DNA of 64,000 nt from the NCBI GenBank assembly GCA_965242965.1, contig OZ251518.1:576001-640000 (forward strand), given 5' to 3'. The stretch comes from Candidatus Poribacteria bacterium. GTDB taxonomy: Bacteria > Poribacteria > WGA-4E > WGA-3G. The notes under the pieces were generated by a model. That model saw only the letters and a program-made list of their open reading frames with translations. It was not told where the DNA came from and searched no databases. This document shows positions 11,499 to 54,997 of this stretch, piece by piece. Positions within the stretch are counted from its first letter, which is position 1, and each line of letters begins with the position of its first letter. The position numbers were made by a program, and so were the translations under genes.

Positions 11499-12977
11499 AT
11501 GAAAAAATGGTTGTCCTGCAAACTCGGTATCGCTCTCGCGGCGATTGTGATGTTGTCCCTCGGTGTTACGGCGATGGGGCACGGCGCGGCACGCGTCTCA
11601 ATAGCACCCGCTGAGATTCCCTCCCCGGCAGTCGGGGAGCAGTTACGCGTTGATATTCACATCACGGACGGCGTGGGTGTCGCGGGCTATGAACTGAGCC
11701 TAGCTTTCGATGCCGCTTCGCTGCGCTATCTAGAAGCGACAAACGCCGATTACCTCCCGCTCGGCGCACTCACAGTAGCACAATTTGACGAGAAAAACAA
11801 CGTCTATCTGACCGCGATTTCCCAGAGCGGCCCCGGCACAGCCAACGATGGCACCCTCGCAACAGTGACGTTTGAAGTAGTGGCAATTAACGCTTCAACG
11901 CTAAAACTCAATGACGTGACGCTCTGGGATAGTAATTCAAAACCGTTGGAAGTCAGGACGGTAGATGGGAAAATTGTGGCTTCGCCCGCGTGGGACGTGA
12001 ATCAGGACGGCGAGGTGAATACGCAAGATCTGGCACTTGTCCGAAAGAACCTGCGGACCTCGGCACCGAATCCCCCGCGCGCCGATGTCAACGGGGATGG
12101 CACGGTGAATATTCTCGATCTGGCACTTGTTGAAAAACACCTCGGTGAATCAACCGGCATGACTTCTTCCGCTGCCGAAACTGTCCCCGAAGGCATGGTG
12201 CTGATTCCCGCCGGTGAATTTCAGATGGGAAGCGATGACAAATCCGCCTATAGCGACGAACGTCCCCTGCATCCTGTCTACGTTGATGCCTTTTATATGG
12301 ATACACACGAGGTGACGAACGCGCAATATCAGGCGTTTGTGCTTGCGAACCCGGCATGGCAAAAAGGGAACGTTCCACGGAAATATCACAACGGCTATTA
12401 CCTCCATTTCTGGAATGGCAATGACTATCCGAGCGACAAAGCAGAACATCCCGTTGTTTATGTCAGTTGGTATGCGGCGATGGCGTATGCAGACTGGGTA
12501 GGGAAACGACTACCGACGGAGGCGGAGTGGGAGAAAGCGCAACGCGGTGGTGTCAGTGTTAATGTCAATGCCAGTGTCAATGCCAATGTCAATGGAAACC
12601 AGTATCCTTGGGGTAATGACATTGATACCAGCATGGCAAATTACGGTTGGGCAATCGGTGACACGGCGGCGGTTGGCAGTTACGCACCCAACGGCTATGG
12701 GCTCTATGACATGGCGGGTAACGTCTGGGAGTGGTGCCTCGATGCATATCAGCGCAATTTTTACGTCACTTCGCCGATGAAGAACCCGGTTTCGGGTGCT
12801 GAGACTACCGCAGAAGTTATTGATAACTACACCGACATCCGTTCATACCGGGTGTTGCGGGGTGGTTCTTGGAGCAGCTCCTCGCAGCATCTGCGGGTAT
12901 CCTATCGCTTCCGGCTCACGCCATCTGTCGCCATCAGCGATTTCGGATTTCGCTGCGTGAAGTCCGTATCGCCTTAA
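11499..12977 (+). CDS. Secreted cohesin + dockerin + FGE/SUMF1-type domain protein
   Basis: Signal peptide; cohesin-like ...LAFD...L.Y...GTLATVTFEV; paired DVNxDGxVNxxDL loops; MVLIPAGEFQMG, RLPTEAEWEKA, DMAGNVWEW, GFRC. Confidence 0.85.
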   Translation: MKKWLSCKLGIALAAIVMLSLGVTAMGHGAARVSIAPAEIPSPAVGEQLRVDIHITDGVGVAGYELSLAFDAASLRYLEATNADYLPLGALTVAQFDEKNNVYLTAISQSGPGTANDGTLATVTFEVVAINASTLKLNDVTLWDSNSKPLEVRTVDGKIVASPAWDVNQDGEVNTQDLALVRKNLRTSAPNPPRADVNGDGTVNILDLALVEKHLGESTGMTSSAAETVPEGMVLIPAGEFQMGSDDKSAYSDERPLHPVYVDAFYMDTHEVTNAQYQAFVLANPAWQKGNVPRKYHNGYYLHFWNGNDYPSDKAEHPVVYVSWYAAMAYADWVGKRLPTEAEWEKAQRGGVSVNVNASVNANVNGNQYPWGNDIDTSMANYGWAIGDTAAVGSYAPNGYGLYDMAGNVWEWCLDAYQRNFYVTSPMKNPVSGAETTAEVIDNYTDIRSYRVLRGGSWSSSSQHLRVSYRFRLTPSVAISDFGFRCVKSVSP

Positions 12978-23537: not shown

Positions 23538-24317
23538 ATGCTTTCTACAAAATGGTTCTACGCTTTTGCATGCGTGTGCCTTCTCTTTTCAACAACCACT
23601 AGCAGTTTCGCCGCGAAAGGGTTTGATTATCTTCCCGATGACGACACACTCGGCCTTTGGCATTTTGATGATGCCAAGGGGGTAGATGCCTCCGAAAACG
23701 GAGTGGAGTCGGACGTTGAAGGGAAAGCGGCGTGGGATGCAAATCAAGATTGGAACAGAGAGGCTAAGCCCGGTAAATCGTTCGTCTTTGATGGAAACAC
23801 GGTGATTTCGCTCGGAGAAGCGGACGTGCTGATTCCTAAAGTTGCGATTACTATTGAAGCCTGGGTCTACCCTGAGGATTTGTCGGGGTGGCGGCTCATC
23901 TGCACGAATTGGGACGGACCGCCGGGTGCCTATCACTTAGGCGTTGAAAACGGCATCGCCAAATTCCATATTAACACCGAGAAAGGCGTGGCGTTTGCAG
24001 GCGCAGCGAAACCTCTTGAGTTGGAACAGTGGCAGCACGTCGCCGGCACCTATGATTCCAATGAAATTAAACTCTACATTGATGGCAAAGAGGTGGGTGC
24101 GACGAACCACGGCGGAAAACTCGTCGGCGCGGGATTTGATGTCATCATAGGCAGTAAAAATACGCGACAGTTTAATTGGAAAGGCTTGATGGACGAAGTG
24201 CGGATAAGCGGTATCGCCAGGGATGCAGACGTGCTGAGCCCAAACTTAGCCGCGCCGCAAGCCGTTGAATTCACGGCAGTCTCTTTGCCAATCCGATGGG
24301 GGCAACTCAAACAATGA
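23538..24317 (+). CDS. Secreted LamG-like jellyroll protein with C-terminal WG-x-LK motif
   Basis: Signal peptide; GLWHFD, TIEAWV, WQHVAGTYD...LYIDG, G.MDEVRIS; ends QAVEFTAVSLPIRWGQLKQ. Confidence 0.9.
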   Translation: MLSTKWFYAFACVCLLFSTTTSSFAAKGFDYLPDDDTLGLWHFDDAKGVDASENGVESDVEGKAAWDANQDWNREAKPGKSFVFDGNTVISLGEADVLIPKVAITIEAWVYPEDLSGWRLICTNWDGPPGAYHLGVENGIAKFHINTEKGVAFAGAAKPLELEQWQHVAGTYDSNEIKLYIDGKEVGATNHGGKLVGAGFDVIIGSKNTRQFNWKGLMDEVRISGIARDADVLSPNLAAPQAVEFTAVSLPIRWGQLKQ

Positions 24318-26059
24318 GCGAAAACGCCGTATCCGCTTTACAACGAGGCATCGCTTTCTTACGCAGACAACAACGCGCAGCGGGAAACTTTGAAGGACAG
24401 CTCTCCTCCAGCACCTTTCCTTCTTGCGCTTATGCATGGGTGCAACTCGCCCAAGGCGAAACACCGGACAAATCCCAACTTGACTGGTTTATCGCAAACC
24501 AAAACGGCGAGGGGAAATGGGGTTTGGATGTCGCGAACATCTCCAATACGGAAGCAACGCTGTTTGCGAAACTCATCTTGTCAGAGACGCATCGGCGCGA
24601 ACCGAACGCTGTCCCAGCGGAACTGCTGGAATCAATTCCGCCGCACCCACTCAACTTGGCACTCGTCAAATTGGCTTACGCCGATTTCAATCAATTTGAC
24701 TGGAACGAACTCACCTTCTCAGAAAAAGCGTTGCCGTTGATGAAAATGGCGAAGCGGTTAACTAAACTCCCTTTCCTTCGCGGCAGGCTGCAGCCGCCGA
24801 GGCATCGTTTGCCCCCGGTCGCGATGTTCAACACGCCGCTGTTTGACGAACTGTTCATTGCAGAACAACATACCCTCGTCCCGGTCTTCCTCATGATCGA
24901 ACTGCAGACGAAAAAGCGGCCGGAACTCATCGCATCGCTTGCGGCGTGGCTGAAAGCGCGCGTGCTGAGCGATGGCAGTTGGTTTCGTGTAAACTATATC
25001 ACCGCGCTTTCGGTATTAGCACTGATTGCATTGCAGAAAGAGGGTTCGCAATCCGATGAGGAGATTGCGGGGCTCATTGCACGCGGCATCGCGTGGCTGC
25101 GTGCGACGCAGAACCCTGACGGTGGCTGCAGGGAGGCGGTGAATCTTAATGTCTGGGATACCGCGCTGAGTATCATCGCGCTGACCGAGGGGCACGCCGA
25201 AACAGCAACGGGCAACGATAGAAACGATAGAAACGATAGAAATGGTGGTGAAATTTTGGAAGATGCGGCGCAATGGCTGGTTGCGCATCAAAATTCCGAT
25301 GGTGGATGGGCATTTTCGGGATTGCGCGATAGTTCACTTCCTAGCGATGCAGACGATTCGGCTTTGGCGACGCTGGCATTAATTCGGGTAACCGCCGCTC
25401 CCACCGGGATAGAGGATGCTATCCAGCGGGGCATCGCTTGGTTGAAGGCGAATCAAGGGGCTGATGGCAGTTGGAGCACCTATCAACCCGGGCAGGGTGA
25501 TGTCGGGTGTGTCAGCATCACGACGCATGCGATAGAGGCGTTGCTCGCATCCGGTGAGAATGAGGCGTGCATTGCGCGCGGCATTCGCTGGCTACGCGCC
25601 GAAATTCAGAGCGACGGCTATTGGCAAGATCTTTGGCTGGCGAAGCGGACATACGGCACGGCGTGCGCCATCATCGCTCTTCTTAAAACAGGAATGACGG
25701 ATGCACCGGAGATCATGCGAGGCGTGCGTTGGCTGGAAAGCATGCAAAATGCTGATGGCGGCTGGGGTGAAGATATGTTCGGTAACCCTACCGGTAGCAC
25801 GGTGGAGCAGACGGCGTGGAGCACTTACGCGCTGTTGTTAGCTGATAGCGCGCCTACCGGTGGAGCTGCCCAAACCGGCACTGCTGCACAGAAGGGAATA
25901 GACTATCTCTGTCGGCATCAAACGGAAGAGGGTTCGTGGCAGGAAAGTTGCGTTGGTATCTATTGGGAAATCATCGGTGGTTACGCCGACCCGATTAATG
26001 CTTCCGTTTTTCCGTTGTTGGCATTGCATCAGTACACGCAGGGCATGCAAAAAATATAA
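24314..26059 (+). CDS. Squalene-hopene cyclase-like class II terpene cyclase
   Basis: Several QW repeats (WLRATQNPDGG, WLVAHQNSDGGW, WLESMQNADGGW), VWDTA, DADDS motif; ATGA overlap with the LamG gene. Confidence 0.8.
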   Translation: MSENAVSALQRGIAFLRRQQRAAGNFEGQLSSSTFPSCAYAWVQLAQGETPDKSQLDWFIANQNGEGKWGLDVANISNTEATLFAKLILSETHRREPNAVPAELLESIPPHPLNLALVKLAYADFNQFDWNELTFSEKALPLMKMAKRLTKLPFLRGRLQPPRHRLPPVAMFNTPLFDELFIAEQHTLVPVFLMIELQTKKRPELIASLAAWLKARVLSDGSWFRVNYITALSVLALIALQKEGSQSDEEIAGLIARGIAWLRATQNPDGGCREAVNLNVWDTALSIIALTEGHAETATGNDRNDRNDRNGGEILEDAAQWLVAHQNSDGGWAFSGLRDSSLPSDADDSALATLALIRVTAAPTGIEDAIQRGIAWLKANQGADGSWSTYQPGQGDVGCVSITTHAIEALLASGENEACIARGIRWLRAEIQSDGYWQDLWLAKRTYGTACAIIALLKTGMTDAPEIMRGVRWLESMQNADGGWGEDMFGNPTGSTVEQTAWSTYALLLADSAPTGGAAQTGTAAQKGIDYLCRHQTEEGSWQESCVGIYWEIIGGYADPINASVFPLLALHQYTQGMQKI

Positions 26060-26069
26060 CCCCTCGAAT

Positions 26070-26600
26070 CCGTAGGGGATCCGGTGGAGATCAGGCGATC
26101 GCCACCTACAGAAAAATATAACCCCCCGAATCCGTAGGGCGAGGGCCTGTCCCTCGCCAGCGTCCGCGTAATCCAACATTCGCGGGGGACAGGCCCCCGC
26201 CCTACGATGAAAAAATGCATGCCCGCGTTCACGAACAAAAAACGCCCCTTTCACCGTAGGGCGAGGGCCTGTCCCTCGCCATGCCGCGATCGCCGCGCTG
26301 ATTGTGTTTATTATTTTCACCGATTTGCAGGTTTTTGTCAATTATTTTGGACGACTATGATCGCGAGGGACAGACCCTCGCGCTACGGTGAAAAAACGCG
26401 CGCCTTTACGTTCGCGAGGGACAGGCCCTCGCGCTACGGTGAAAAAACACGTGTCTTTACGATCGCGGGGGACAGGCCCTCGCGCTACGATGAAAAAACG
26501 CGTGCCTTTACGATCGCGAGGGACAGGCCCTCGCGCTACGGTAGGAGAAAAGCCCCTCTTCACCGTAGGGCAAGGATGGCAAAGACCTGTCCCTCGCCAT
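26070..26600. repeat. REP mosaic including four tandem 51-bp units
   Basis: TCGCGAGGGACAGGCCCTCGCGCTACG at a 51-bp period from about 26360 to 26540, flanked by GTAGGGCGAGGG copies. Confidence 0.9.
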
Positions 26601-26644
26601 GCCGCGACCGCGAAGAACATTCCCCCATCCAACGACTGTTTAAC

Positions 26645-27316
26645 ATGAATTCCATCATCATCCCCGTTCTAAACGAAGAAAAAATCTTATCGCAAACCCT
26701 CAATCGGCTTCAACCCGAATTGGCGAACCATGAACTCATCATTGTTGATGGCGGCAGCACGGATGCTTCGGTGAGCATCGCGCAAAAATTCGGGAAGGTA
26801 GTCTTTTCCGAACGCGGACGCGCGAAACAACTCAACGCTGGTGCCGCAGCGGCGACCGGGGATATTCTCATTTTCTTACACGCCGATGTTTGGCTGGAAC
26901 CGGGCGCGATGGCCGCCGTAGAAACCGCGCTCGCCAACGGGGACATCGGCGGCGCATTCCGACAAAAGATTGACTGCAAGCATTTTTTATATCGGTTCAT
27001 TGAGGCAGCCGCCAACTTTCGGGCAAAACGGTTGCGGGTGTTTTACGGCGATGGCGGCATTTTTCTGGCGCGGACCCATTTTCAGCAGATTGGCGGGTTT
27101 CCTGACGTTCCGATTTTAGAGGAAATGGGATTTTCAAAGGCACTGCGCCGACTCGGCAAAACCACCCTCATTTCACCGTGTATCCATATCTCACCACGGC
27201 GCTGGGAAGAAGGTGGGCTCGTCAGGACGACGTTGAACAATTGGCTGATAACGCTGCTCTATTTTCTGGGGGTTTCGCCGGAACGGCTTGCGAAGTTGTA
27301 TCGGCACATTCGGTAG
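26645..27316 (+). CDS. Family 2 glycosyltransferase (TIGR04283-like)
   Basis: SIIIPVLNEE, VDGGSTD, GRAKQLNAGA, FLHAD, YGD.GIF, GGFPD.PI.E, S.RRWE, L..LY; upstream ORF extension is REP-derived. Confidence 0.88.
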   Translation: MNSIIIPVLNEEKILSQTLNRLQPELANHELIIVDGGSTDASVSIAQKFGKVVFSERGRAKQLNAGAAAATGDILIFLHADVWLEPGAMAAVETALANGDIGGAFRQKIDCKHFLYRFIEAAANFRAKRLRVFYGDGGIFLARTHFQQIGGFPDVPILEEMGFSKALRRLGKTTLISPCIHISPRRWEEGGLVRTTLNNWLITLLYFLGVSPERLAKLYRHIR

Positions 27317-27324
27317 GTTGAACC

Positions 27325-27376
27325 ATCGAGACCAGGAGGTCTCTCCTACTGTTGAGACGCAGGAGGTCTCTCCTAC
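27325..27376 (-). repeat. Two GTAGGAGAGACCTCCTG-type REPs between convergent genes
   Basis: GAGGTCTCTCCTAC twice; the second supplies the TAG stop of 27373..28329. Confidence 0.8.
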
Positions 27377-28329
27377 TGACGCTTCATTTTACCCCAGACC
27401 GTGGTTAACTGCGATGCTTTCGGCGCAACGGGCAACGCTACTTCGTCAAACCAGTCCGCATCGGTATTGTTTCCCTTGGTTGTGAGTTGTATCGGTTTCC
27501 CGCGTCCTGTCACAGCGACTTTGTAGAGCTGCGTCCGTCCTCCCTCTTTTCTCTCATACAGGATCTCATCGCCGTGCGGGGACCAGGTTGGATGATTGAC
27601 AATCCGATCTTTCACGAGATGCTTCACCTGAACGCCATCGCGAGACGTAATGTAGAGCGACATCTTATCGTCTACGCGCAGCGGACCGACTTGATTCCGC
27701 GGCCACTTGAAGCCGGCAAACGCGAGCCCATCACCGGCAGGAGACCAGGCGGGGTGTTTCATGATATACTTTTGTTCCCGAAGTAGCACATCTACGCTGC
27801 CTGTGTAGACATTGATGAGGTAAATATCCATACTCCCTCCCCAACCGTAGGCGATTTCTGTTCCATCAGGTGACCAGGTTGGATAGGCATATCTCCAATC
27901 AATTCGCGCCAATTGTTTGGCACCTGCGCCGGTGCGAGTCGCAGTCTTTATCATGTTTTTGTCGTGCCGCACGTAGGCAATCTGGATGTTGTCAGGAGAC
28001 CAGGTGGGTTCGGCGCGGTGTCTCGCGTTTTTAAAGACAGGACGCACTCTACTTCCATCCGCACGCATCAAATATAAATCCGGTATCCTGTCGCGAGTTG
28101 ACACAAATAGGATATGCTTGCCATCGGGGGACCAGGCCGGGTCAAAATCTTCCGCAGGGTGACGGGTTAAATTCGTCTGTTTGCGTCCATCGGGATTCAT
28201 GACGTAGATGTCTCTGTTCCCATCTCGGTTTGAGGTAAAGGCAATTTTGTGTTGGGTTCGCGCGTGTGCATGTAGACACAATAGGGAGAGGATTAGGACG
28301 CAAAAAAGCGTTAGACAGAGAGGTTTCAT
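27373..28329 (-). CDS. Secreted TolB-like (PD40) beta-propeller with C-terminal WG-x-MK motif
   Basis: KIAFTSNRDGN.DIYVM, repeated P.WSPDG; ends LPVAPKASQLTTVWGKMKRQ. Confidence 0.88.
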   Translation of the reverse strand: MKPLCLTLFCVLILSLLCLHAHARTQHKIAFTSNRDGNRDIYVMNPDGRKQTNLTRHPAEDFDPAWSPDGKHILFVSTRDRIPDLYLMRADGSRVRPVFKNARHRAEPTWSPDNIQIAYVRHDKNMIKTATRTGAGAKQLARIDWRYAYPTWSPDGTEIAYGWGGSMDIYLINVYTGSVDVLLREQKYIMKHPAWSPAGDGLAFAGFKWPRNQVGPLRVDDKMSLYITSRDGVQVKHLVKDRIVNHPTWSPHGDEILYERKEGGRTQLYKVAVTGRGKPIQLTTKGNNTDADWFDEVALPVAPKASQLTTVWGKMKRQ

Positions 28330-28381
28330 GATGAAAAGAAAATGAGTGCCGGGAGGGCACGATGCCCTCCCGAACGCGAAA

Positions 28382-29248
28382 TTAGCGCACCTGTTTAATC
28401 GAACCCCAGGTTGTCGCTAACTTGTTCTTGGCTTCGACATCAAACGTGCCGTTTTCAGCGAGCCAGTTGTTGATGAACTCGGCGACACCGACACCACGGA
28501 TGTCGGGCTTATCGGCCCACACCGGGGCACCGAGCTGCCACATCGCGGCAATCATGCCAGTGCCATCTTTTCCAGGCGTTTTACTGACTGCCACCGCCGG
28601 GTCTGCCGTGTTTTTATCCGATTGTGCGAAAACGACGACATCCCAATCTGAACCATCAAACTGTTCAAGATGCCACGGACGGGTGGATTTGAAAGGCTTC
28701 ATCGAGGGAATAGCCTTTTTCCCGATGTCTGTCGGTTCCGAATTACCACCCCGGTCGGCGAAGGTGAGGTTATCAATGTCAAAGACATTTGCGGCTCCCG
28801 CTGCGCCATTATCGGGGCTCCGAACGCCGCCTTCGTAGCTCATGTAGAAAATCCAGTCGGCGACGTTAATGACGACGTTGCCTTCTTCAACGAAGTTTTC
28901 CACGTTAGAGCCATCAGGCTTTTTGTTCGGGAACGGATACAACGCGCTCGGTGTTGTGCCGCACGCGAGGATGATAACGTCTTGCTGCCCGTTGCCGGTA
29001 TGTTCAACGCACCACTGCGCGAGTGGGGAATTGTCACCCTCTTCGTCGCCATCACCGAAATCTTCGATGCTGTTGAAGAGTGCCTTGATACCGGCATCGT
29101 TCTTGATCGCCTTAACATTTTCTGCTACCGCACCGTCGGAAATCCAACCGGGATTCGTCGGGCCGGAGTAAAATGCCAAGTCATTGGCTTGAACGATAGC
29201 CATGCTGCTCATGAGAGCAAAAATGGCTAGACACACATAGAATTTCAT
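28382..29248 (-). CDS. Secreted hypothetical protein (paralogue of 29410..30285) with C-terminal WG motif
   Basis: Signal peptide, GGAGG RBS; ends FDVEAKNKLATTWGSIKQVR. Confidence 0.85.
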   Translation of the reverse strand: MKFYVCLAIFALMSSMAIVQANDLAFYSGPTNPGWISDGAVAENVKAIKNDAGIKALFNSIEDFGDGDEEGDNSPLAQWCVEHTGNGQQDVIILACGTTPSALYPFPNKKPDGSNVENFVEEGNVVINVADWIFYMSYEGGVRSPDNGAAGAANVFDIDNLTFADRGGNSEPTDIGKKAIPSMKPFKSTRPWHLEQFDGSDWDVVVFAQSDKNTADPAVAVSKTPGKDGTGMIAAMWQLGAPVWADKPDIRGVGVAEFINNWLAENGTFDVEAKNKLATTWGSIKQVR

Positions 29249-29409
29249 GATATGGAATTCCTCCTAGTTGTTGGAGCGGTTCGTTAGGAACAGCTCTATT
29301 TATCTTTATCGGACAGACGTGGCACCGTTTCCCATGTAATAGGCGCGCTAGTTCAGTGGCGCGGCGCAAACCGCGCCTACTAACTAGCGTCTGTCCTGTC
29401 GATCGAATA

Positions 29410-30285
29410 CTAGCGACCGGATTTGATTCGTCCCCAGGTTGTCGCTACTTTGTCCTGGGCTTCTACCGGGGTTGTGGTGATTTCGCCGTTTTCAACGAGC
29501 CAGTTGGCGATAAATTCAATAACGCCGGCGGCTCTCGGGTCATCGCCTTCCCAGTCTGGTTGTGCTTTCTGCCACATCGCGGCGATAATACCGCCGTATG
29601 TCTGGTTCACGGCGACGGCCGGGTCTGCAGAATTCGGGTCATCGTTTGAAATAGCAAACGGGGTGACTTCCCAATCCGTGCCTTCAAATTGCTCAAGGTG
29701 CCACGGCCGGTCAGACTGAAATTCCACGAGCGAGGGGATATATTTACTCCCCATGTCTGTGGGCACCGCCGGGCCGCCCCGGTTGCCGAAACTGAGTCCC
29801 GGTATATCAAACACGTTAGCGGCACCGTCCGCGCCGTTATCAGCACTTCGCGAACCGCCTTCGTAACTCATATACAGAATCCAATCGGCGACGTTGATGA
29901 AGACGTTCCCGTCCTCAACGAAGTTCTCGATGTTGGACCCGTCGGGATCGGCGTTTGGAAATTGGTAAATCGCGCTCGGCGCGGTGCCGGAAGCAGCGAT
30001 GAAGACATCCTGCTGGCCGTTGCCTGTGTGTTCCTGCATCCACAGGCCGAGTGCGGAATCGTATCCGACTTCGTCGCCATCACCGTAAACGTTGATGGTT
30101 TCAAAGATGGCTTTCATATCGGCATCGTTTGCGACGGCCTCACCGTTCGCGATGGCGGCTTCCTGCGAGATCCAGCCGGGGTTCGTCGGACCCGAGTAGA
30201 TTGCCAAGTCCGCCGCGGGCGCGTTGGATAAGCCAATGAGTGAAAGCGATAAACTCAGTATCGCTACGAGGAAAATTTTTCGCAT
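29410..30285 (-). CDS. Secreted hypothetical protein (paralogue of 28382..29248) with C-terminal WG motif
   Basis: Signal peptide, AAGGAG RBS; ends PVEAQDKVATTWGRIKSGR. Confidence 0.85.
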   Translation of the reverse strand: MRKIFLVAILSLSLSLIGLSNAPAADLAIYSGPTNPGWISQEAAIANGEAVANDADMKAIFETINVYGDGDEVGYDSALGLWMQEHTGNGQQDVFIAASGTAPSAIYQFPNADPDGSNIENFVEDGNVFINVADWILYMSYEGGSRSADNGADGAANVFDIPGLSFGNRGGPAVPTDMGSKYIPSLVEFQSDRPWHLEQFEGTDWEVTPFAISNDDPNSADPAVAVNQTYGGIIAAMWQKAQPDWEGDDPRAAGVIEFIANWLVENGEITTTPVEAQDKVATTWGRIKSGR

Positions 30286-30620
30286 GAATCAGCTCCTTTT
30301 GCATCCAGTCTGCGCAAAACAGATTGCGCAGAACAGGCAAAACAGAATAGCCCGCGACAAAACTCCCCGTGTGATACGGAGAGTGCGCGGGCACAATGAT
30401 AGTGACAGGACGGCAGCAGCTGCCGACGCGTCGTTATGATAATAGGAAGAGTAATAGTTGTTAAGTGAGGGGGGGGTGGTTAGCGATGCGTCACGAGCGT
30501 TACGGACACGGTGAGGCGCAAAGAGGTGTCGTCCCCACGATGCGTGGAGCCTTCCTTGCACGTTCCCTATTTTCACTGAGGTTTTGACACTGCAGTTTTT
30601 CACGCTCGTTTTCCCGTTCG

Positions 30621-31349
30621 TTATCGCTTGAGTTCTCCCCACGTCACGGCGAGTTTGTCATGGGGTTCAACCGCGAGGTTTACCCCGTTAGGATTATCGT
30701 AAAGATAGACGTTGTCAATATAGTAGTGCTGGAGTTGGTTCGTATGAATCCCGAGCACCCCCATCGGATGGAGGTCCTTCGGGTCACTCCATTCTACTAC
30801 TTTTTCAAAGACGAGCGCGCCCTGCCTCTTGATGAAGAGTTGGAAGTTGTTCCCATCGCCAAGCAGCGAGAGCGTATACCACTCCTTGCTTACAACCTGC
30901 ATCGGGAATTCGGCCCGATGGTCCCGATATTCAGTCCAGGTCCCCCGGTCGTTTCCTTCGCGTTTATACCAGCGTGCGGAATTCGGGCGACCGGCACCGT
31001 CAGCCGGCGTGATGATCAGTTGATAGAAATGGTAGTCCCTGTCAGCGCGAAACAAGAGTTCCATCTTGCTCGGGAACGGATCAACCAGCAGTTGGAAATC
31101 CAGTTGGAGCCCGAAGTTTTCAAACTCTATCTTGCCGTACCCGAAGTCGACTTCGCCATTTCCATCGCCGGCAATCCGGTGGATTTCCAGTTTGCCGCCC
31201 TTCACATCCCACGATTCTTTCTGGCCTTCCCAGAAATTATTTTTCAATTTGCCTGTGAAGTCATCTGCCATGAGCAGGCCCGCCTCACTCTGCGGACACA
31301 GCAAAAGCACAGATGCTAGCAGGCAGGAAAGAATAACAATCTTTCGCAC
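30621..31349 (-). CDS. Secreted concanavalin-fold (DUF1080-like) protein with C-terminal WG motif
   Basis: GGAGG RBS then GTG 31349; DDF...W.V..G, WY.L...G..F, G.LG...YIDNV; ends LAVEPHDKLAVTWGELKR. Confidence 0.75.
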   Translation of the reverse strand: MRKIVILSCLLASVLLLCPQSEAGLLMADDFTGKLKNNFWEGQKESWDVKGGKLEIHRIAGDGNGEVDFGYGKIEFENFGLQLDFQLLVDPFPSKMELLFRADRDYHFYQLIITPADGAGRPNSARWYKREGNDRGTWTEYRDHRAEFPMQVVSKEWYTLSLLGDGNNFQLFIKRQGALVFEKVVEWSDPKDLHPMGVLGIHTNQLQHYYIDNVYLYDNPNGVNLAVEPHDKLAVTWGELKR

Positions 31350-31381
31350 AGCGATTTCCTCCGTTGAAATAAGCATTATTG

Positions 31382-31712
31382 TTGACATACTCCCTACACG
31401 CTAAAGCGTGGGGATTCAATGGTGTCGGTATCCCGTTGCTTCGTGTGGAATTCTGCGATGTGTGCGACCGACCGCACGCGTGAGATGCGCGGTTACCCGC
31501 GCCTGACACTCACTCTCACACTAGACTGATGCCCCGCCTAGATGATGGGTGGTAGATAACCGAACGATGCAGCATGACCCGACTTTCGCTCAGTCATCTA
31601 CCGTCGATGTTTTACAGGGTCTCACCTGCAACCCGCCAACGCCTCTTTCCACAGAGACAGATAGGCACCGCGACTTAGAATGCCGCGGGTGGAAACGCCT
31701 ATCTGGCAGGTT
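31382..31712 (-). ncRNA. Candidate structured ncRNA (omega-RNA-like) within the IS605 derivative
   Basis: Own promoter; stems CAGATAGGC/GCCTATCTG, CCTGCCA/TGGCGGG, GGTAGATGACTGAGCGA/TCGTTCGGTTATCTACC; ends at the right-end hairpin. Confidence 0.5.
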
Positions 31713-44004: not shown

Positions 44005-46959
44005 CTATTCCTCCTCTTCTGTCGTCTCCTTCGGCTCAATCAGCTCCATACCGTTGTTTTGCCAATTGTCCGCCTTCTCTTTCAACTTCTCGATGTCCCC
44101 CGGATTCTTGATGTCCACGATGTGCGGCGTGATGATAATCACAATCTCCGCGTTCTCAATTTTGGTGTCTGTCTTCTTGAAAAAGCGGCCGATAAGCGGA
44201 ATATCACCCAGAATCGGGAGTTTCACCTCAACGTTAGTCTGCTTCTGGCGGATAATGCCGCCGACGACAATTTGCTGTCCATCTTCAACATCAATATAGC
44301 TGCTGATGGAGTTGTCCTCGGTGATCGGCGCGTTGAAATCCGTGAACTCCACGAAGTTGCTAGCACTGATATTGGCAATGTCCAAGCCAATCGTGCGGGT
44401 GCCATCTTCGCTCGCCTGCGATTTGGCGATGTACGGCGTGATATCGATGTTGATGCCGACAGGCGGATCGATGAAATCGTAGTTGAAAAGCGGCTGCGAG
44501 ACTCCCTCGCCGAGGATGCTGTTCGTATCAACGCTTTGCAGATAGGGGATGCGCCGCCCACTGCTCCATGTAGCTGGCTGGCTATCGCGCGTCAGCAGCG
44601 ACGGTGTGGAGAGCGTCCGCACCTTGTTCTCACGAATCATCGCGTGGAGCAGTGCCATATACTCATTCGTCGCCAAACTGATATTAAAACCCGAGACTTC
44701 TCGTTCAAGTGCCAACTCCGGTGTCAGTTCCCCGACGAGGGGGTTGCCGCGGCGCGGTTCAATGCCGAAAATTCTATTCTCCTCTACCGTCAATTCAATG
44801 CCGAGTTTCGTGGTATCGTCAAGCGTGACCTCAAGGATGCGGATGTCTATCCACACCTGCCCGCGCACGAAATCTAATTTGGCGATGAGGGCTCGGACAT
44901 CGGGGAGATACCGCTGCAGTGTGGTGACAACCAGCGTGTTTGTGTCCTCGTCGGCGTGAACCGTGACTTTGCCGCGCAGCGAGTTAATGTCTTTCTGCTC
45001 CATGCGGCCGCCGGTGGCGAAGAACCGGCTAAAACTGAAGCGGTTTTGACTGTCATCGCCTTCCCAAACGTCTTCAAGCACATCCTCAAGTTCTTCGGCG
45101 TTGGCGTATTCCAACCGAATCGTCTCTGTCACCTCTTTTTGGCCCTGCGGTGTCGGCACATCTAAGTCCTTGATGAACTGCGTAATGAGGTCGAAGTTAC
45201 GCTGTGTGGAGGTAGAAATGATGACAGCGTTCAGCGTGATGTAGGGCTCTGCCGTAACATTGCCGGCGAGTGAACCTTGCGTCTGGTTGCGCTGCCGTTC
45301 CGCGAGAAAGAAGAAAAAGTTGCCGCTGTCCCCTGAACCCCCTTGGTAAGTATTGTTAATGATATTTGCGATGTTTTCTGCATCGGCGTATTGGAGTTTA
45401 AATATCTCAGTGCCCCATTCCTGGTCTGGCATGGCGACATCCACTTTGCTGAGGAGGTCATCGATAACCTCAAAGTTTTGCGCGGAGGTGGATACCATGA
45501 GCGCGTTGAGGCGGGCATCGGGGACAATGTGGACTTCGCCCTGGATGCCGAATCCGGTGCTACCACTCGGTTCGCGTCGTGCTCTGGCCCACCAAGGTCT
45601 TTCCCTGTCTGCGCCAGCACTGCCGCCTTCAAAAAGGTCTTGAAGACTCGGCGCGAGGGTATCCGCAATGGCATACTTCAGGTAATAGATTTTGATTTCT
45701 GTCTGCGTTTGCTCCTGGTCCAGCGCGTTGATAACTTTGTCAATGATAGAGAAATTCCTCGGGTCTGATGCAACGACGACAACGTTCAGCCTGTCATCCC
45801 GCGAGACTCTCACGTCACCGACGATGCCTTGATTTTCAACGCCTTGTTCCCGCCGAAACGCGCGGATTTTCGCCCGGTCCCACGGGTCTGCCCTGCCGGT
45901 GTTCCGACTGCTTTCGCCGGTGATTACCTCCTGCAATACGCTTGCAACATCTTCGGCGGTGGCGTTCTTGAGACGAAATATCCGAATCTCGGTGCGCAAG
46001 GTCGGCGAGATGTCTAACTGACGGATGAGCTCTCGGAGGAGGACCAGGTTCGCTTCAGATGCCTTCACGACAAGCGAGTTGGAGTTGGCATCGGCATAGA
46101 TTTGCACGGTGCCTTGGAACATTTCAAAATCAGTCCCTTGTTCGATGGCTAGCCGTGCGTCGTCTGCATCGCCGATTCTTTTACCACCGCTCGTCTTCTG
46201 CTCGTCTTCCTCTTCCTGAAAGACTCGCGTGAGCATTTGCGCGAGTTCGGTTGCATCGGCGTAAGTTAGCGGGATAATCGCGATGCGCAACGGGAACCGT
46301 TCCCCTTCATCGGCGATTTGCAAGATAGAGACGATTCTGCGGATATTGGAGGCAACGTCGGTGATGACGAGCGCGTTCGTGGTAGCCTCCGCGAAAATGA
46401 CAGCCTGTTTGTTGAGCAAGGGCCGCAACGCTTCCACTTGTTCGGAAGCGACAGCGTTCTCCAGTTGCACAACATAAGTCTGGATTTCGTCTGTCTCCTC
46501 CACTTGTGCCGGATCGGCGAAGATGTGGTTAAACGGCACTTTCATCACCATCGCCTTCTCAAAAGTGGTGATGAGGAGCGTGCTGTCAGTGCGAATGAGC
46601 GTCAGGTTATACTGCGCGAGGATAGTTTTGATTCTTTCGATGACCTGGTCCAACGTGACGTTTTTGAGATTAATCAGTGAGAACCGTTTATCGCGGAGGT
46701 CCTCTTCACTCGCGATGATGGTGAGTTCTGTTTCACGTGACAGCCATTCCAAGAGCCCTTTGAGTTCTTGTCCGGTGAAGTTAAAGTCAAAGCGGATGGC
46801 GCGTCCTTCGTCATCAGTTTCGGCGACGCGCATCGGCGGTTCTTGCTGGTTCTGAGCGGGGAGCTCCGCGAGTAGCCCGAGCAGCAGCCCCACACAAACA
46901 AGTGAGATGAATATTTTTCTATGTCGCAATGCGTTTGATAACGTCTCTGGTGCAATCAT
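44005..46959 (-). CDS. gspD: Type II secretion secretin with expanded N domains
   Basis: About six N-domain repeats (L.YA.A..LA), QVWID.RI.EV, LSTPSLLT.D...A, V.DGQ.IVVGG, KLPILGDIPLIGRFFK, ITPHI. Confidence 0.92.
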   Translation of the reverse strand: MIAPETLSNALRHRKIFISLVCVGLLLGLLAELPAQNQQEPPMRVAETDDEGRAIRFDFNFTGQELKGLLEWLSRETELTIIASEEDLRDKRFSLINLKNVTLDQVIERIKTILAQYNLTLIRTDSTLLITTFEKAMVMKVPFNHIFADPAQVEETDEIQTYVVQLENAVASEQVEALRPLLNKQAVIFAEATTNALVITDVASNIRRIVSILQIADEGERFPLRIAIIPLTYADATELAQMLTRVFQEEEDEQKTSGGKRIGDADDARLAIEQGTDFEMFQGTVQIYADANSNSLVVKASEANLVLLRELIRQLDISPTLRTEIRIFRLKNATAEDVASVLQEVITGESSRNTGRADPWDRAKIRAFRREQGVENQGIVGDVRVSRDDRLNVVVVASDPRNFSIIDKVINALDQEQTQTEIKIYYLKYAIADTLAPSLQDLFEGGSAGADRERPWWARARREPSGSTGFGIQGEVHIVPDARLNALMVSTSAQNFEVIDDLLSKVDVAMPDQEWGTEIFKLQYADAENIANIINNTYQGGSGDSGNFFFFLAERQRNQTQGSLAGNVTAEPYITLNAVIISTSTQRNFDLITQFIKDLDVPTPQGQKEVTETIRLEYANAEELEDVLEDVWEGDDSQNRFSFSRFFATGGRMEQKDINSLRGKVTVHADEDTNTLVVTTLQRYLPDVRALIAKLDFVRGQVWIDIRILEVTLDDTTKLGIELTVEENRIFGIEPRRGNPLVGELTPELALEREVSGFNISLATNEYMALLHAMIRENKVRTLSTPSLLTRDSQPATWSSGRRIPYLQSVDTNSILGEGVSQPLFNYDFIDPPVGINIDITPYIAKSQASEDGTRTIGLDIANISASNFVEFTDFNAPITEDNSISSYIDVEDGQQIVVGGIIRQKQTNVEVKLPILGDIPLIGRFFKKTDTKIENAEIVIIITPHIVDIKNPGDIEKLKEKADNWQNNGMELIEPKETTEEEE

Positions 46960-47059
46960 GTTTCTCTCCGTATATCTGTCATCAAGGGTGTTGATGACTC
47001 CGTTTTTGGTTTATTTACGTCTTGACACGGTGCGGAACAAGTTTTCCTCGCTCTACACT

Positions 47060-47180
47060 TTGACATGGCGCAGGACAGGCCCGCGCCCTACGAAATGAAG
47101 GTGCCCCTCTCTGTAGGGCAAGATCGCCTGATCTTGACTCCTGACACTTTGACATGGCGCGGGACAGGCCCGCGCCCTAC
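47060..47180 (-). repeat. REP cluster upstream of gspD
   Basis: Two CACTTTGACATGGCGC(A/G)GGACAGGCCCGCGCCCTACG copies flanking one GTAGGGCAAGATCGCCTGATCTTGAC. Confidence 0.85.
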
Positions 47181-47198
47181 GGACTAACGGCGAATCTG

Positions 47199-48431
47199 TC
47201 AAAAAATACGTGCGATCATCTGCACATTTACGCTCAATGTAGCTTCACGCTGCTGCCTGGGCGCGCCCGGCCGCCCGGGCCTCGCGCCTGTCTCACGCTG
47301 CTTTTCCACAGCGATCCTTAAATCTTTGACAGACAACCATTTCGTGCTGGTTTCGATGAGGTGGTTGAGCCGCACCAACTTTTCCATATCGGTTTTGAAT
47401 TTCATCTCGACGATGTAAGTCTCGGACTGATACGTCGCGGGTGCGAGAGCCAGCTGCTCTACTAGTCTTCTCCGCTGTTCCAGAATTGCCTCAACGTATT
47501 CTAACGTCGCCAAAATGAGATTTTCCTCATTGAACGGCATGGTGGGAATGCTAGGCACATTCTCTCCAGCCTCCGCCGCGTGTTGCTGTTGTTGCGCGGT
47601 GTAAGCCGCCGCGGCTTTCACTAGCAATTCCAATAGCGTGCTATCCTCTAGGAACTGCACTTCAACCGATGCCGGTGTTCCGCCGATGCCGAAAATGCCG
47701 GGGCTCGCAACCGTAGTTCGTTCGTGAATCTGTGACGCAAAGAAACCGCGCTTCTGATTTGCCGCGCCACGCAATTCTTGGACAACCATCGCATGGATGA
47801 AAGTGGCGAGTTGAACGCGGATATCCACGGGTATCATCTCCGGCAACGAGGCGAACGTCTGCGGCTTTTTCGCCTTCGCAGTTGCTGTGGCATCTTTTTC
47901 GGGTTCATCTTCTCCGAGCCATGCCGACATCATCTTGCCGAACATGTCCTCGCCTGCTGTTAACTCTTTCTCAAGTGCCGCTTTCTCCGCCTCCAAGTGT
48001 TTCAGGTAGAGGTAAAGGACGAGATGTTCTCGCGTTTGCATGGAGAGGTTCGTCGTCTGTTTGCCGGGTGCAGGCTTCGTCTGAATCTGATAATTTTGTT
48101 GCACGCCAGCGCGTTTGACAAGCGCGTCGATGCGCCGCCGGATTACCGTTTCCGGATGCTCCCGTTTGAAAATGGTGGCAACATTCGGCCGATTCTGAAC
48201 GGCTAACCCGGTATCCTTGTAGATTTCGGCTTCGACCTTTTCCAGCAGTTTCGCAGCCGCAATCAAATTTTCAGTTTTCTGCAGCTGCGCCTCTTTCGCA
48301 TCCATGTTGCTGATGGAAAAGATGCCCAAGAACGCCGGTCCGACTTGCATCGCGAGCGCAGCCAAGAGGACGACACCTAAGACGATAAGCAAGACTCGGG
48401 TCATCGGGGTTAATTGGATATTGACATCCAT
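47199..48431 (-). CDS. GspM/PilO-like inner-membrane platform protein
   Basis: N-terminal TM helix, coiled coil, C-terminal ferredoxin-like strands (IE...WLSVKDLRI); position in operon. Confidence 0.55.
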   Translation of the reverse strand: MDVNIQLTPMTRVLLIVLGVVLLAALAMQVGPAFLGIFSISNMDAKEAQLQKTENLIAAAKLLEKVEAEIYKDTGLAVQNRPNVATIFKREHPETVIRRRIDALVKRAGVQQNYQIQTKPAPGKQTTNLSMQTREHLVLYLYLKHLEAEKAALEKELTAGEDMFGKMMSAWLGEDEPEKDATATAKAKKPQTFASLPEMIPVDIRVQLATFIHAMVVQELRGAANQKRGFFASQIHERTTVASPGIFGIGGTPASVEVQFLEDSTLLELLVKAAAAYTAQQQQHAAEAGENVPSIPTMPFNEENLILATLEYVEAILEQRRRLVEQLALAPATYQSETYIVEMKFKTDMEKLVRLNHLIETSTKWLSVKDLRIAVEKQRETGARPGRPGAPRQQREATLSVNVQMIARIF

Positions 48432-48437
48432 GTTGTG

Positions 48438-50273: not shown

Positions 50274-50306
50274 TTTGTCCCTTTAGGGCTTGCGTAAGTC
50301 CTATCC

Positions 50307-51800: not shown

Positions 51801-52678
51801 TGCGGTGGCCCTCCCTGTCCTTCTTGTGCGGGTGGAGCTTGCGGCAAAGCAACCATCGTCGTCTGGCTCATCGTGTTGGGCGGCGTTCCCGTTTGCATCT
51901 GCGTTGTCTCAACGCTTTGAGGACGCGAATCTTCCCCTTTCACGGTGATTAAAACGCGCACGGCATAAGGGTTGCTGTCTTCCTGTTCCCATGAATCATA
52001 CCAAGTCCCTTCGTCACCGAGGTATTTCAGATCGAAGTTGACAATTCCGGTGACGAGTGTTGCACTCTGAAAGTAGACAGGCTCGCCGTTTTCGTCGGTT
52101 TGTGGGACCGTGCCGGTATCCATCAAGGAACCGATAACCACTTCCGGATTAAGCGCAGTAGTTGTCACCCGGTAAAGTGCTAGTTCCTCTGTCTCTGTTG
52201 CGGCGTTCGGGAGTTGGAAGTTGTTCCCGCCGGTGCCTCCCGGCGGCATCTCTGCCCGAACGAAATAGGCGACGCGCTGAACATCGCTCATCAACGGCGG
52301 CACAGCCAAACTGCTGCTCGTTTGTTGGCGACTGGCGTTGAGTTGCGCCAAAAACGGATCTGGGGCTGTCCTCACCAACGTGACGAAACTGAGCATATCC
52401 CGTTCTCCCGAATCAGAAGGCACGTCTTGTGTGTATAGCACAAAATCGGGCTCTTCCGGTGCGGCTTGGAAGTGCTTCAGATCGGTCGCGAGCGTATCTA
52501 ACGCTACCCGAGTCCGCTGAGCGGCGAGTATCTTCGCCCCAGTCTGGTGATAGGCATCAAGCGAGGTTTTGAATACGGCATAGGCTGCACCGGCGATAAT
52601 GGCGAGCACGCTCACAGAGACGAGCATCTCGACGAGGGTAAAGCCGCTTTCATGGGGTGCTGTGTAACGCGTATGCAT
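51797..52678 (-). CDS. gspJ: Minor pseudopilin GspJ-like
   Basis: SG|FTLVEMLV; ..DL..; V.Y; W.DSW...P.AV.V. Confidence 0.8.
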   Translation of the reverse strand: MHTRYTAPHESGFTLVEMLVSVSVLAIIAGAAYAVFKTSLDAYHQTGAKILAAQRTRVALDTLATDLKHFQAAPEEPDFVLYTQDVPSDSGERDMLSFVTLVRTAPDPFLAQLNASRQQTSSSLAVPPLMSDVQRVAYFVRAEMPPGGTGGNNFQLPNAATETEELALYRVTTTALNPEVVIGSLMDTGTVPQTDENGEPVYFQSATLVTGIVNFDLKYLGDEGTWYDSWEQEDSNPYAVRVLITVKGEDSRPQSVETTQMQTGTPPNTMSQTTMVALPQAPPAQEGQGGPPQ

Positions 52679-52743
52679 CCGATGTTCCTCGCTCAGTGGA
52701 CAGTGGACAGTGGACGCAGTTTTTAACCGCGCCCACCGGTTTT

Positions 52744-53136: not shown

Positions 53137-53159
53137 GGTTTTTATTTTGCTTCCGCACA

Positions 53160-53300
53160 GCGAGGGACAGGCCCTCGCCCTACGGGACAGGTGCCCAGAG
53201 ACCGTAGTTCGGGATCGCCTGATCCCGAACGGGTACCGTCGCACGGCGAGGGAAACCCGCTCGCATGCGCGTGTGGCATGCGAGGGCCCTCGCCCTACGG
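53160..53300. repeat. REP cluster between gspH and gspI
   Basis: Reverse GTAGGGCGAGGG copies (one loop-expanded) and GTAGTTCGGGATCGCCTGATCCCGAAC. Confidence 0.85.
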
Positions 53301-53333
53301 GACGGGTACCGTGTGTTGTGGAATGCAGTTGGT

Positions 53334-54717: not shown

Positions 54718-54814
54718 GTCAATCTCCTATAACAGTGGCAATCCTCACGGACTGCTGTTGGACTTTAGACCCGGTTAAGGGTAGAAGGTTCTTTTTTTTT
54801 AGGGCTTGCGATTT

Positions 54815-54985: not shown

Positions 54986-54997
54986 CCTAAATCCTTT

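Follow-up and report, generated by a model that had tools for sequence, protein, structure and literature searches.

The window analysed here, a stretch of 64,000 nucleotides from the genome of an uncultured sponge-associated Poribacteria symbiont (5.7 Mb, 94.7% complete), contains five ORFs whose translations combine a signal-peptide-like hydrophobic N-terminus with a common C-terminal tail of 17 to 19 residues. In these five proteins, the tail follows the consensus V-E-(P/A)-x2-K-L-x-T-T-W-G-x-(L/I/M)-K, with the core ending one to three residues from the stop. The genes and their tails are arranged as follows.

23538..24317, + strand: protein 1 (259-aa ORF), signal peptide, Laminin_G_3 (LamG) body and tail
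24261..24314, + strand: tail of protein 1, AVEFTAVSLPIRWGQLKQ, core W-G-Q-L-K one residue from the stop
27373..28329, - strand: protein 2 (318-aa ORF), signal peptide, PD40 beta-propeller and tail
27376..27432, - strand: tail of protein 2, PVAPKASQLTTVWGKMKRQ, core two residues from the stop, profile E 2.1e-6
28382..29248, - strand: protein 3 (288-aa ORF), signal peptide, alpha/beta body and tail
28385..28441, - strand: tail of protein 3, DVEAKNKLATTWGSIKQVR, profile E 7.2e-10
29410..30285, - strand: protein 4 (291-aa ORF), paralogue of protein 3, with tail
29413..29469, - strand: tail of protein 4, PVEAQDKVATTWGRIKSGR, profile E 2.4e-10
30621..31388, - strand: protein 5 (255-aa ORF), signal peptide, body without Pfam family and tail
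30624..30674, - strand: tail of protein 5, AVEPHDKLAVTWGELKR, profile E 3.2e-10

The initial annotation of this DNA had described five secreted proteins of the window sharing a C-terminal motif that is missing from its other exported proteins, and both statements are borne out. Indeed, all five ORFs were recovered with their signal-peptide-like N-termini, and the tail profile returns precisely these five tails at E ≤ 0.01, the most divergent being that of protein 1 (E 0.0028), so that the other exported proteins of the window are devoid of it. The LamG and beta-propeller bodies initially assigned to proteins 1 and 2 correspond to Pfam PF13385 Laminin_G_3 (E 2.5e-27, residues 86-231) and PF07676 PD40 (E 3.6e-29), respectively; the TolB-like score of protein 2 in the NCBIfam search (158 bits) is under the 343-bit cut-off. 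Proteins 3 and 4 are the paralogue pair previously noticed (61% identity in alignment), both without Pfam match. Protein 3 has no NCBIfam match either, and those of its 331 homologues that bear a name are all 'Candidatus Poribacteria'. Protein 5, for which a concanavalin fold had been put forward at first, has a body with no Pfam match that is present in just 6 of 41 Poribacteria genomes, and has kept its tail in its three orthologues.

At the scale of the whole genome (27,153 ORFs, 3.83 million residues), the core WGx[ILMV]K occurs 103 times, of which 77 lie within four residues of the stop, 13 at 5-20 residues from it and 13 further in. Since a uniform spread predicts about 4 occurrences next to the stop, this position does not result from chance. 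The HMM that had been suggested at the outset gives 127 C-terminal matches and 9 weak internal ones, 122 of the former being in ORFs of at least 150 aa. A signal-peptide-like N-terminus is found in 117 of these 122 tagged ORFs versus 1194 of all 3712 genes, with the same loose rule applied to both sets. The resulting consensus is (L)-(A/P)-V-(E/D)-(P/A)-x-(G/D)-K-L-(A/T)-T-T-(W/F)-(G/A/S)-x-(L/I/V)-K, after which 1-9 further residues, basic for the most part (R, A, S, Q and K predominate), complete the protein without hydrophobic span. A T-T-F-G variant ends 30 giant adhesin-like proteins of 824-2184 aa, and the tagged total amounts to ∼150 exported proteins. The tag thus exists and is confined to the C-terminus, as proposed for signal-peptide proteins of unrelated folds. 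All conserved tail residues are encoded by mixed synonymous codons (six for Leu at -4, four for Gly at +1), which indicates selection on the peptide and not on a DNA repeat, and third-position identity (0.37) is below amino-acid identity (0.51). Selection is acting on the protein sequence of the tail.

The tag is phylum-wide. It was detected in all 151 Poribacteria genomes sampled, with 22 of 22 genera represented, and in none of 38 genomes of other phyla, the latter having been picked for their related T9SS CTDs and not as a sample of all phyla. Among the best 150 matches in a set of 1.84 billion representative proteins, 145 are true tails, all of them at most 15 residues from the C-terminus. 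The recommended check against Pfam and NCBIfam returned no model matching the tail, and we found no matching description of the motif in the literature. A tag present in every sampled Poribacteria genome and on ∼3% of the genes here is yet without model or name.

The tagged bodies fall into at least 28 sequence families and are mostly non-catalytic binding modules. Pfam matches were obtained for 17 of the 28 family representatives (Laminin_G_3, PD40, CBM_4_9, CBM9_1, F5/8-type-C, NPCBM, 3-keto-disaccharide hydrolase, GH43_C2, PA14/RhaB_D2, HmuY and LTD/fn3/LRR/Big). The three T-T-F-G giants tested all contain LTD, together with fn3, cadherin or Big_12. A HmuY-like tagged protein is encoded directly downstream of a TonB-dependent receptor and adjoins Peripla_BP_2 and ABC-ATPase genes. 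HmuY of Bacteroidota is a surface lipoprotein hemophore; in the protein found here, the tail and a signal peptide of the ordinary kind replace the lipoprotein form. Judging from their domains, the tagged cargo classes appear to point outward.

The tail itself is probably flexible or unstructured in protein 3, as predicted by a single AlphaFold2 model in which pLDDT reaches 77 overall and is below 50 in the tail (residues 271-288), where W-G-x-I-K-x-x-R forms a short helix of equally low confidence (pLDDT below 50). The amphipathic character initially put forward for the tag is thus tentative. Foldseek searches with the AlphaFold2 model of the paralogue pair returned weak matches (E about 1e-3) to class-I glutamine-amidotransferase (GATase1)/ThuA-like alpha/beta folds.

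Homologous bodies end in different ways. Two 499-aa orthologues of protein 3 (76-77% identity, 100% coverage) contain a decayed tail, with W-N for W-G, followed by a dockerin and a FlgD_ig/T9SS CTD. In the same vein, a '..YRLEE.S..G' module of this genome is followed by the tail in proteins of 1157 and 1281 aa and by a dockerin and a CTD in a 7077-aa protein. More generally, a body homologue with a CTD exists for 34 of 107 tagged proteins. These comparisons indicate that the tail and the dockerin plus T9SS CTD have been exchanged on the same bodies in the course of evolution.

We propose, with a probability of about one half, that the tail is a Poribacteria-specific C-terminal tag for surface sorting or anchoring that is read by a receptor of the envelope. 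The tagged protein would first cross the inner membrane by Sec export; the envelope receptor would then recognise its unstructured last ∼18 residues in the form of a free linear peptide, and this recognition would direct the protein to the cell surface or hold it there. The tag would mark a non-catalytic binding repertoire made of standalone carbohydrate-binding modules, lectin-like jelly rolls and propellers, together with the hemophore-like protein and the giant adhesin-like proteins, and would be the functional counterpart of the T9SS C-terminal domain (with dockerin). A surface destination is suggested by domain content and by analogy, recognition presumably involves a protein receptor, and the tag may help the protein across the outer membrane, retain it, or do both. 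To our knowledge, no linear peptide of ∼18 residues has so far been described that sorts Sec-exported proteins to the outer membrane. The analysis brought up no receptor: tagged genes are not enriched beside PorV-like genes or the T2SS, and no conserved neighbour is common to the 27 T-T-F-G giants examined. PD40/TolB-like propellers account for 14 of 122 tagged proteins; those of known systems reside in the periplasm, and part of the cargo would thus fit a periplasmic role.

In a bolder reading, which we consider unlikely, the tail alone would be the outer-membrane translocation signal of ∼150 Sec-exported folded proteins of 20-230 kDa and would work through a Poribacteria-specific adaptor, for example a PorV/PorQ-family barrel at a SprA-like translocon or a component of the T2SS. 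If it were so, two-step secretion in a diderm bacterium would for the first time be seen to use a short linear export tag, and the tail, a compact and transferable export signal of a new type, would define the surface 'interactome' that an uncultured sponge symbiont presents to its host.

The idea of a minimal T9SS-linked signal, in which a PorV/PorQ-family barrel acts as tail adaptor at the SprA-like translocon, is a specific version of the surface tag; we hold it to be less probable still, even if it leads the alternatives. PorV serves type A CTDs and PorP/SprF type B CTDs, and the genome harbours a T9SS-like kit consisting of 42 CTD proteins, 17 PorV_fam matches (4 over cut-off), one SprA-like ORF (about 2200 aa) and three C25 giants resembling PorU. 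The exchange of tail and dockerin plus CTD on the same bodies and the presence of CTDs in the same 151 of 151 Poribacteria genomes speak in its favour. However, the SprA and PorU matches are below curated cut-offs, and tagged genes adjoin PorV-like genes in only 2 of 14 cases, without enrichment. In addition, the tail does not resemble the genome's CTD alignment (hhalign E 0.4 over 4 columns), a faint tail-like peptide precedes the CTD in only 2 of 42 CTD proteins (E 0.07 and 1.9), and T9SS-bearing genomes of other phyla are without tail (0/38). The GldL/M/N models found no match in this genome, nor in T9SS-bearing control genomes.

Somewhat lower in our ranking is a periplasmic tether, in which tagged proteins stay in the periplasm and the basic, Trp-containing tail anchors them to a periplasmic scaffold, the peptidoglycan or the periplasmic side of the outer membrane. 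The propellers among the cargo, the Arg/Lys-rich residues after the core and the fact that no export machinery could be linked to the tag would all fit such a role. Nevertheless, most bodies are carbohydrate-binding modules, discoidin, NPCBM or adhesin-type domains (cadherin/fn3/LTD), the hemophore-like protein adjoins a TonB-dependent receptor, and these bodies are also found joined to a T9SS CTD, itself a signal for export.

The initial annotation had pointed to the T2SS located 13 kb away as a candidate partner, and this linkage is not upheld. A linear export signal for that system appears doubtful, although folded Sec-exported proteins without CTD require an outer-membrane route, the window contains a full cluster (44008-58114) and its GspK-like gene is conserved in 18 of 18 diverse Poribacteria genomes. 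Indeed, in five other Poribacteria genomes, intervals of 80 kb with the T2SS cluster at their centre contain 2, 1, 1, 0 and 0 tails, a density that does not exceed the genome-wide one, and the TPR gene that adjoins the secretin has not been conserved in them. The cluster shows no recognisable PDZ or other domain for peptide binding, and its 410-aa protein, in the GspC position, is without Pfam match. Moreover, we know of no linear signal or defining sequence feature in T2SS substrates, and proteins of the size reached by the cargo (up to 2184 aa) are large for this system.

We regard as very unlikely that the tail is a docking or co-assembly peptide (a 'mini-dockerin') by which standalone binding modules plug into one another or into a scaffold at the surface, which would yield multivalent glycan-capturing complexes exported by means of other features. 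Almost all cargo proteins are non-catalytic binding modules that are useful only if attached to something, the tail occupies the dockerin position of related proteins, cohesin and dockerin modules are present in the genome (e.g. window 11499-12974), and 24 of 42 CTD proteins display a dockerin-like motif. Against this, the tail has neither a dockerin or other Pfam match nor a Ca-binding motif, and the true dockerins of the genome (D-V-N-x-D-G-x-V-N...) look unlike it; tail and dockerin coexist in one protein (P0030), and no scaffold candidate was identified. Finally, cleavage of the tail by a peptidase at the surface or in the periplasm (for instance a PorU-like C25 giant acting as a sortase), whether or not the new C-terminus is then attached covalently, is the least probable of all, since classical sortase and exosortase were not found in the genome and other T9SS phyla have extra C25 paralogues yet no tail, even if 2-4 divergent C25/PorU-like giants are present per genome in 20 of 20 Poribacteria genomes, the arrangement of V-E-P and T-T-W-G is reminiscent of short sortase-type motifs (a resemblance only) and the varying distance between core and stop suggests that recognition does not involve the extreme end.

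Besides, whatever its reader, the tag offers a sequence criterion by which the surface and secreted binding proteins of an uncultured sponge symbiont of ecological importance can easily be listed, among which carbohydrate-binding modules, a hemophore-like protein and cadherin/fn3/LTD giants.

Compared with known sorting systems, the tail resembles the PEP-CTERM/exosortase, LPXTG/sortase, GlyGly-CTERM/rhombosortase and MYXO-CTERM signals in being a short C-terminal motif followed by basic residues and in its presence on large paralogous sets of secreted proteins; such sets include many LamG-type proteins in other phyla. Unlike them, it has, as initially noted, no TM helix between the motif and the basic end, with only 1-9 residues after the core. 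The PEP-CTERM and LPXTG assignments are also at odds with the genome content: exosortase (PF09721) has no match in this 94.7%-complete genome (the control matched in 1 of 14 genomes), nor has sortase (PF04203), for which the controls matched in 3 Gram-positive genomes. A GlyGly-CTERM is dismissed by the absence of both the Gly-Gly motif and the TM helix from the tails. An outer-membrane-protein beta-signal for BAM ends a beta-barrel with a C-terminal aromatic residue, usually Phe; in the tails, the residues that come after the core are mainly R, A, S, Q and K, and the bodies have soluble lectin, propeller or alpha/beta folds. The T11SS model Slam/DUF560 (PF04575) found no match in the genome, and none in control genomes.

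Type I dockerins (PF00404; cohesin PF00963), which attach secreted proteins to a surface scaffold, are C-terminal as well and occupy the same position in related Poribacteria proteins; they differ by their about 60-70 residues and two Ca-binding repeats, neither of which the tail has, and PF00404 has no match on the five window proteins. In mechanism only, the tail may be likened to the secretin S-domain/pilotin pair of the PulD-PulS type, in which a short disordered C-terminal peptide of the secretin becomes ordered on binding the pilotin that takes the protein to the outer membrane, although one protein and one pilotin are involved there versus ∼150 tagged cargo proteins here, and the sequences are unrelated. 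The closest parallel is the T9SS type A CTD (TIGR04183/PF18962 Por_Secre_tail; PF13860), found like the tail at the extreme C-terminus of many unrelated folds, on signal-peptide cargo numbering dozens to hundreds of proteins per genome, in the same genomes and in exchange on the same bodies. It is distinguished by being a folded domain of about 75-100 residues, much longer than the 17-19 residues of a tail that is unstructured in the model, and by its presence in the 38 T9SS-type genomes that are all devoid of the tail; CTD profiles do not match the five window proteins (Pfam E ≤ 0.01, NCBIfam E ≤ 1), and we reject the tail as a type A CTD. LPXTG, PEP-CTERM and the T9SS CTD each led to a dedicated sorting machine, and the tail may in turn be used as a peptide bait for its own.

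The tail noted in the window, a peptide of about 18 residues with a W-G-x-(L/I/M)-K core, terminates five proteins:

23538-24317, plus strand: window protein 1, LamG
27373-28329, minus strand: window protein 2, PD40 propeller
28382-29248, minus strand: window protein 3, first of a paralogue pair
29410-30285, minus strand: window protein 4, second of the pair
30621-31388, minus strand: window protein 5

These ORFs are present as the initial annotation described them. A hydrophobic, signal-peptide-like segment opens each (5/5), in line with the signal peptides that it proposed, and all five end in ..V-E-(P/A)-x2-K-(L/V)-x-(T/V)-(T/V)-W-G-x-(L/I/M)-K with 1-3 further residues before the stop; the tail of the LamG protein is the most divergent. 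Pfam returns Laminin_G_3 for 23538-24317 and PD40 repeats for 27373-28329, which bears out the two folds proposed for them, and no family for window proteins 3, 4 and 5. The body of the paralogue pair is predicted to be an alpha/beta fold, with weak GATase1/ThuA-like Foldseek matches (E about 1e-3). That of window protein 5 occurs in only 6 of 41 genomes and its orthologues keep the tail; bodies turn over fast while the tail persists. Since, at E <= 0.01, a profile of the genome's tails picks these five in the window and no others, the other exported proteins lack it, as had been claimed: at this threshold it was not found on the FGE-sulfatase, cohesin/dockerin, FG-GAP/ASPIC or TPR protein, nor on the TonB-dependent receptor or the secretin. 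The LamG gene overlaps by 22 nt that of a 587-aa squalene-hopene-cyclase/prenyltransferase-like alpha/alpha-toroid protein with no evident signal peptide (window 24296-26059). After the latter comes a GT2 glycosyltransferase (window 26207-27316), whose ORF has a long N-terminus built of REP-derived 'ARDRPSRYGEKTRAFT' repeats that is probably not translated.

Across the genome (5.70 Mb in two contigs, the window being C1:576001-640000), 27,153 ORFs contain between them 103 copies of WGx[ILMV]K. The core is far from equally common at internal positions: 77 occurrences lie at most 4 residues from the stop, against about 4 expected, 13 lie 5-20 residues from it and 13 deeper inside. A profile built from 88 tails, as had been recommended, yields 127 C-terminal matches, W-A and W-S variants among them, and 9 weak internal ones. 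In all, 122 of the C-terminal matches score E < 1 in ORFs no shorter than 150 aa (median length 266 aa); 117 of these 122 have a signal-peptide-like N-terminus, compared with 1194 of all 3712 genes under the same loose rule, and 8 a lipobox-like string. A second form, ..G-P-V-S-x-x-N-R-x-L-T-T-F-G-E-V-K-x-x-E, terminates 30 proteins of 824-2184 aa, the T-T-F-G giants; of 87 occurrences of FGx[ILMV]K, 33 are at the C-terminus, 3 of these apparently by chance. Together, the two forms end about 150 proteins, roughly 3% of genes. Leucine at position -4 is encoded by six codons and glycine at +1 by all four, threonine, valine, proline and lysine codons are mixed, and third-position identity between tails is 0.37 versus an amino-acid identity of 0.51. 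Because codons are mixed and conservation is at the protein level, the tail is not encoded by the REP or MITE elements that abound in this genome, and this codon analysis rules out a DNA repeat as its source. The tail is a real, strongly selected C-terminal tag.

The proteins that bear the tag are diverse. As untrimmed all-against-all comparison gave one giant component, body families were defined by BLAST clustering of tag-trimmed bodies, and the 122 bodies fell into 28 families (sizes 59, 14, 6, 5, 4, 3 and 3, seven pairs and 14 singletons). Pfam matches were obtained for 17 of the 28 representatives and none for the other 11; they comprise Laminin_G_3, PD40, CBM_4_9, CBM9_1 (two), F5/8 type C, NPCBM, 3-keto-disaccharide hydrolase, GH43_C2, RhaB_D2/PA14, HmuY, LTD+Big_12 and fn3+LRR+LTD. 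All three T-T-F-G giants tested contain LTD along with fn3, cadherin or Big_12. By these Pfam contents, the cargo consists overwhelmingly of non-catalytic binding modules and adhesin-like giants. The 30 giant genes are all monocistronic and flanked by REP-rich spacers; examples are:

C1 1166081-1169980: T-T-F-G giant
C1 2217415-2221905: T-T-F-G giant
C1 1749484-1755528: T-T-F-G giant

The tail profile matches in 151 of 151 sampled Poribacteria genomes (9 families, 22/22 genera), with 35 to 356 first-look candidates per genome and, among the scored matches listed, at most 51 per genome; named homologues are from 'Candidatus Poribacteria bacterium'. Outside the phylum, genomes were reached with this genome's own T9SS-type C-terminal domain (CTD; Por_Secre_tail/FlgD_ig) as bait, which led to loci in Zixibacteria, Calditrichia, Ignavibacteria, Cloacimonadota, Bacteroidota, Gemmatimonadota, Marinimicrobia and others at 38-51% identity. 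None of the 38 CTD-bearing genomes of other phyla gave a tail match, and two genomes with Poribacteria-like CTDs gave 150 and 120. A similar motif suspected in other candidate phyla, W-G-x-I-K-x-x-Y, was not supported by these 38 genomes either. Run on 1.84 billion representative proteins, the profile made 257 matches at E <= 0.001; among the best 150 of these are 145 true tails, whose core is at most 15 residues from the end (140 within 9), and 5 false positives from repeat proteins. The tail has no NCBIfam match at E <= 1, its sequence strings were not found in a text search of published papers, and the listings and abstracts retrieved on Poribacteria sorting signals, LamG, C-terminal or secreted proteins and dockerin/cohesin held nothing relevant. 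It is thus phylum-wide, so far phylum-specific, without a database model and in no paper reached by our searches. Three viral-classed IMG/VR contigs, L191, L192 and L199 (20.6, 67.0 and 40.6 kb), encode signal-peptide proteins of 312-375 aa with a true tail; they may be phage or prophage sequences or Poribacteria DNA wrongly classed as viral. Among 2.9 million viral contigs, the exact pattern was matched 11 more times, at internal positions and by chance.

Where the tag leads is suggested by three clues. First, in an AlphaFold2 model built for window protein 3 from 37 aligned sequences (pLDDT 77, pTM 0.79), tail residues 271-288 have a pLDDT below 50 and are unpacked from the body, in this one model of one fold. 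Second, two 499-aa orthologues, 76-77% identical over 100% of window protein 3, retain a decayed tail (..QLATTWNEIKEGR), beyond which lie a dockerin, then a helical linker, then a FlgD_ig/T9SS CTD. Similarly, a '..YRLEE.S..G' module of this genome is followed by the tail in proteins of 1157 and 1281 aa and by a dockerin plus CTD in one of 7077 aa, and in 34 of 107 tagged proteins the body has a homologue with a CTD. Tail and CTD, the latter a proven surface-export module, are thus alternative endings of shared bodies, and W-G decays when the core loses its terminal position. Third, a gene for a TonB-dependent receptor is followed immediately downstream by that of an HmuY-like tagged protein; HmuY of Bacteroidota is a surface lipoprotein hemophore.

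C1:1566200-1566835: HmuY-like tagged protein
C1:1561815-1568763: heme or iron-type uptake locus (TonB-dependent receptor, HmuY-like tagged protein, Peripla_BP_2, ABC ATPase)

All three point outward, to a predicted surface destination. Our main reading, at a probability of about 0.5, is that the tail is an address tag that would take Sec-exported binding proteins to the cell surface or hold them there, read as a free peptide by a putative Poribacteria-specific receptor.

A more specific version would have a T9SS adaptor read the tail. Poribacteria carry a predicted T9SS-like kit, which in this genome includes 42 CTD proteins (NYPNPFNPETW...VASGVYFYTLTAGDFSATRKMVIRK) and 17 PorV/PorQ-family matches:

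C1 1116582-1116872 and 4919344-4919634: CTDs, examples
C1 5273289-5274449 and 1073052-1073984: PorV/PorQ family, examples
C1 3451181-3457804: SprA-like ORF, about 2200 aa, match below cut-off
C1 3236351-3242812, 2333983-2340540 and 92242-96477: three PorU-like C25 giants, below cut-off

Two of its PorV-like barrels are fused, one to a SPOR peptidoglycan-binding domain (578 aa, C1:897947-899683) and one to an SLT lytic transglycosylase domain (614 aa, C1:4400691-4402535). Poribacteria have 2-4 divergent C25 'PorU-like' giants of about 2000 aa, and an orthodox PorU of ~1300 aa scored over the cut-off in 0 of 20 of them versus 35 of 38 genomes of other phyla. A Poribacteria-specific 'tail sortase' among the PorU paralogues was discarded, extra C25 paralogues occurring in other phyla too. 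GldL, GldM and GldN models gave no matches here, nor in T9SS-bearing control genomes, so that they are uninformative; the Slam family likewise matched in none of its control genomes. The listings and abstracts searched contained no paper linking Poribacteria to T9SS, and the passages on type IX secretion seen in PMC7313196 concern Bacteroidetes only. Despite this kit, an adaptor of this sort is unlikely: the tail is unrelated to the CTD (hhalign E 0.4), so that we rejected it as part of the CTD or its linker, and the other T9SS phyla (38/38 genomes) are without it. A faint tail-like peptide precedes the CTD in only 2 of the 42 CTD proteins and, among 80 CTD loci, in one orthologous group (L069/L072, E 0.11 and 4.6). 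As CTDs, like tails, are present in 151/151 Poribacteria, co-occurrence does not discriminate. A dockerin-like motif in 24 of the 42 CTD proteins suggests that a cohesin-dockerin surface system rides on T9SS-like cargo; one exported protein (window 11499-12977) combines cohesin, dockerin and FGE-sulfatase domains. Retention by the tail as a periplasmic tether seems less likely again.

The initial annotation named the T2SS 13 kb away as a candidate machinery, with weak linkage. This system is complete (E, F, G, minor pseudopilins, K, a PilM/N-like fusion, a 410-aa protein and the secretin), and its K-like gene occurs in 18 of 18 diverse Poribacteria. The 984-aa secretin (window 44008-46959) has six Secretin_N stretches, three being usual, and the 410-aa protein, which occupies the GspC position (window 47202-48431), belongs to no Pfam family. 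The linkage was not supported: in five other genomes, 80-kb windows around the T2SS contain 2, 1, 1, 0 and 0 tails, not above the genome-wide mean, about 2 per 80 kb, which makes a T2SS signal, the other specific version of the address tag, improbable; the adjoining TPR gene is not conserved in these five. Other neighbourhoods gave no partner either: a tagged gene lies within five genes of only 2 of 14 PorV-like genes and beside 1 of 5 TonB-dependent-receptor homologues of the window gene, and the 27 T-T-F-G giants examined share no neighbour. A docking or co-assembly peptide is more doubtful still, and a cleaved recognition peptide is the least credible proposal, as the genome yielded no exosortase and, with positive controls, no sortase.

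The address tag that we prefer would work in parallel with the CTD and its dockerin. It differs from sortase and exosortase signals in having no transmembrane helix and, whereas HmuY of Bacteroidota is a lipoprotein, its HmuY-like counterpart here has an ordinary signal peptide and the tail in place of a lipid anchor.
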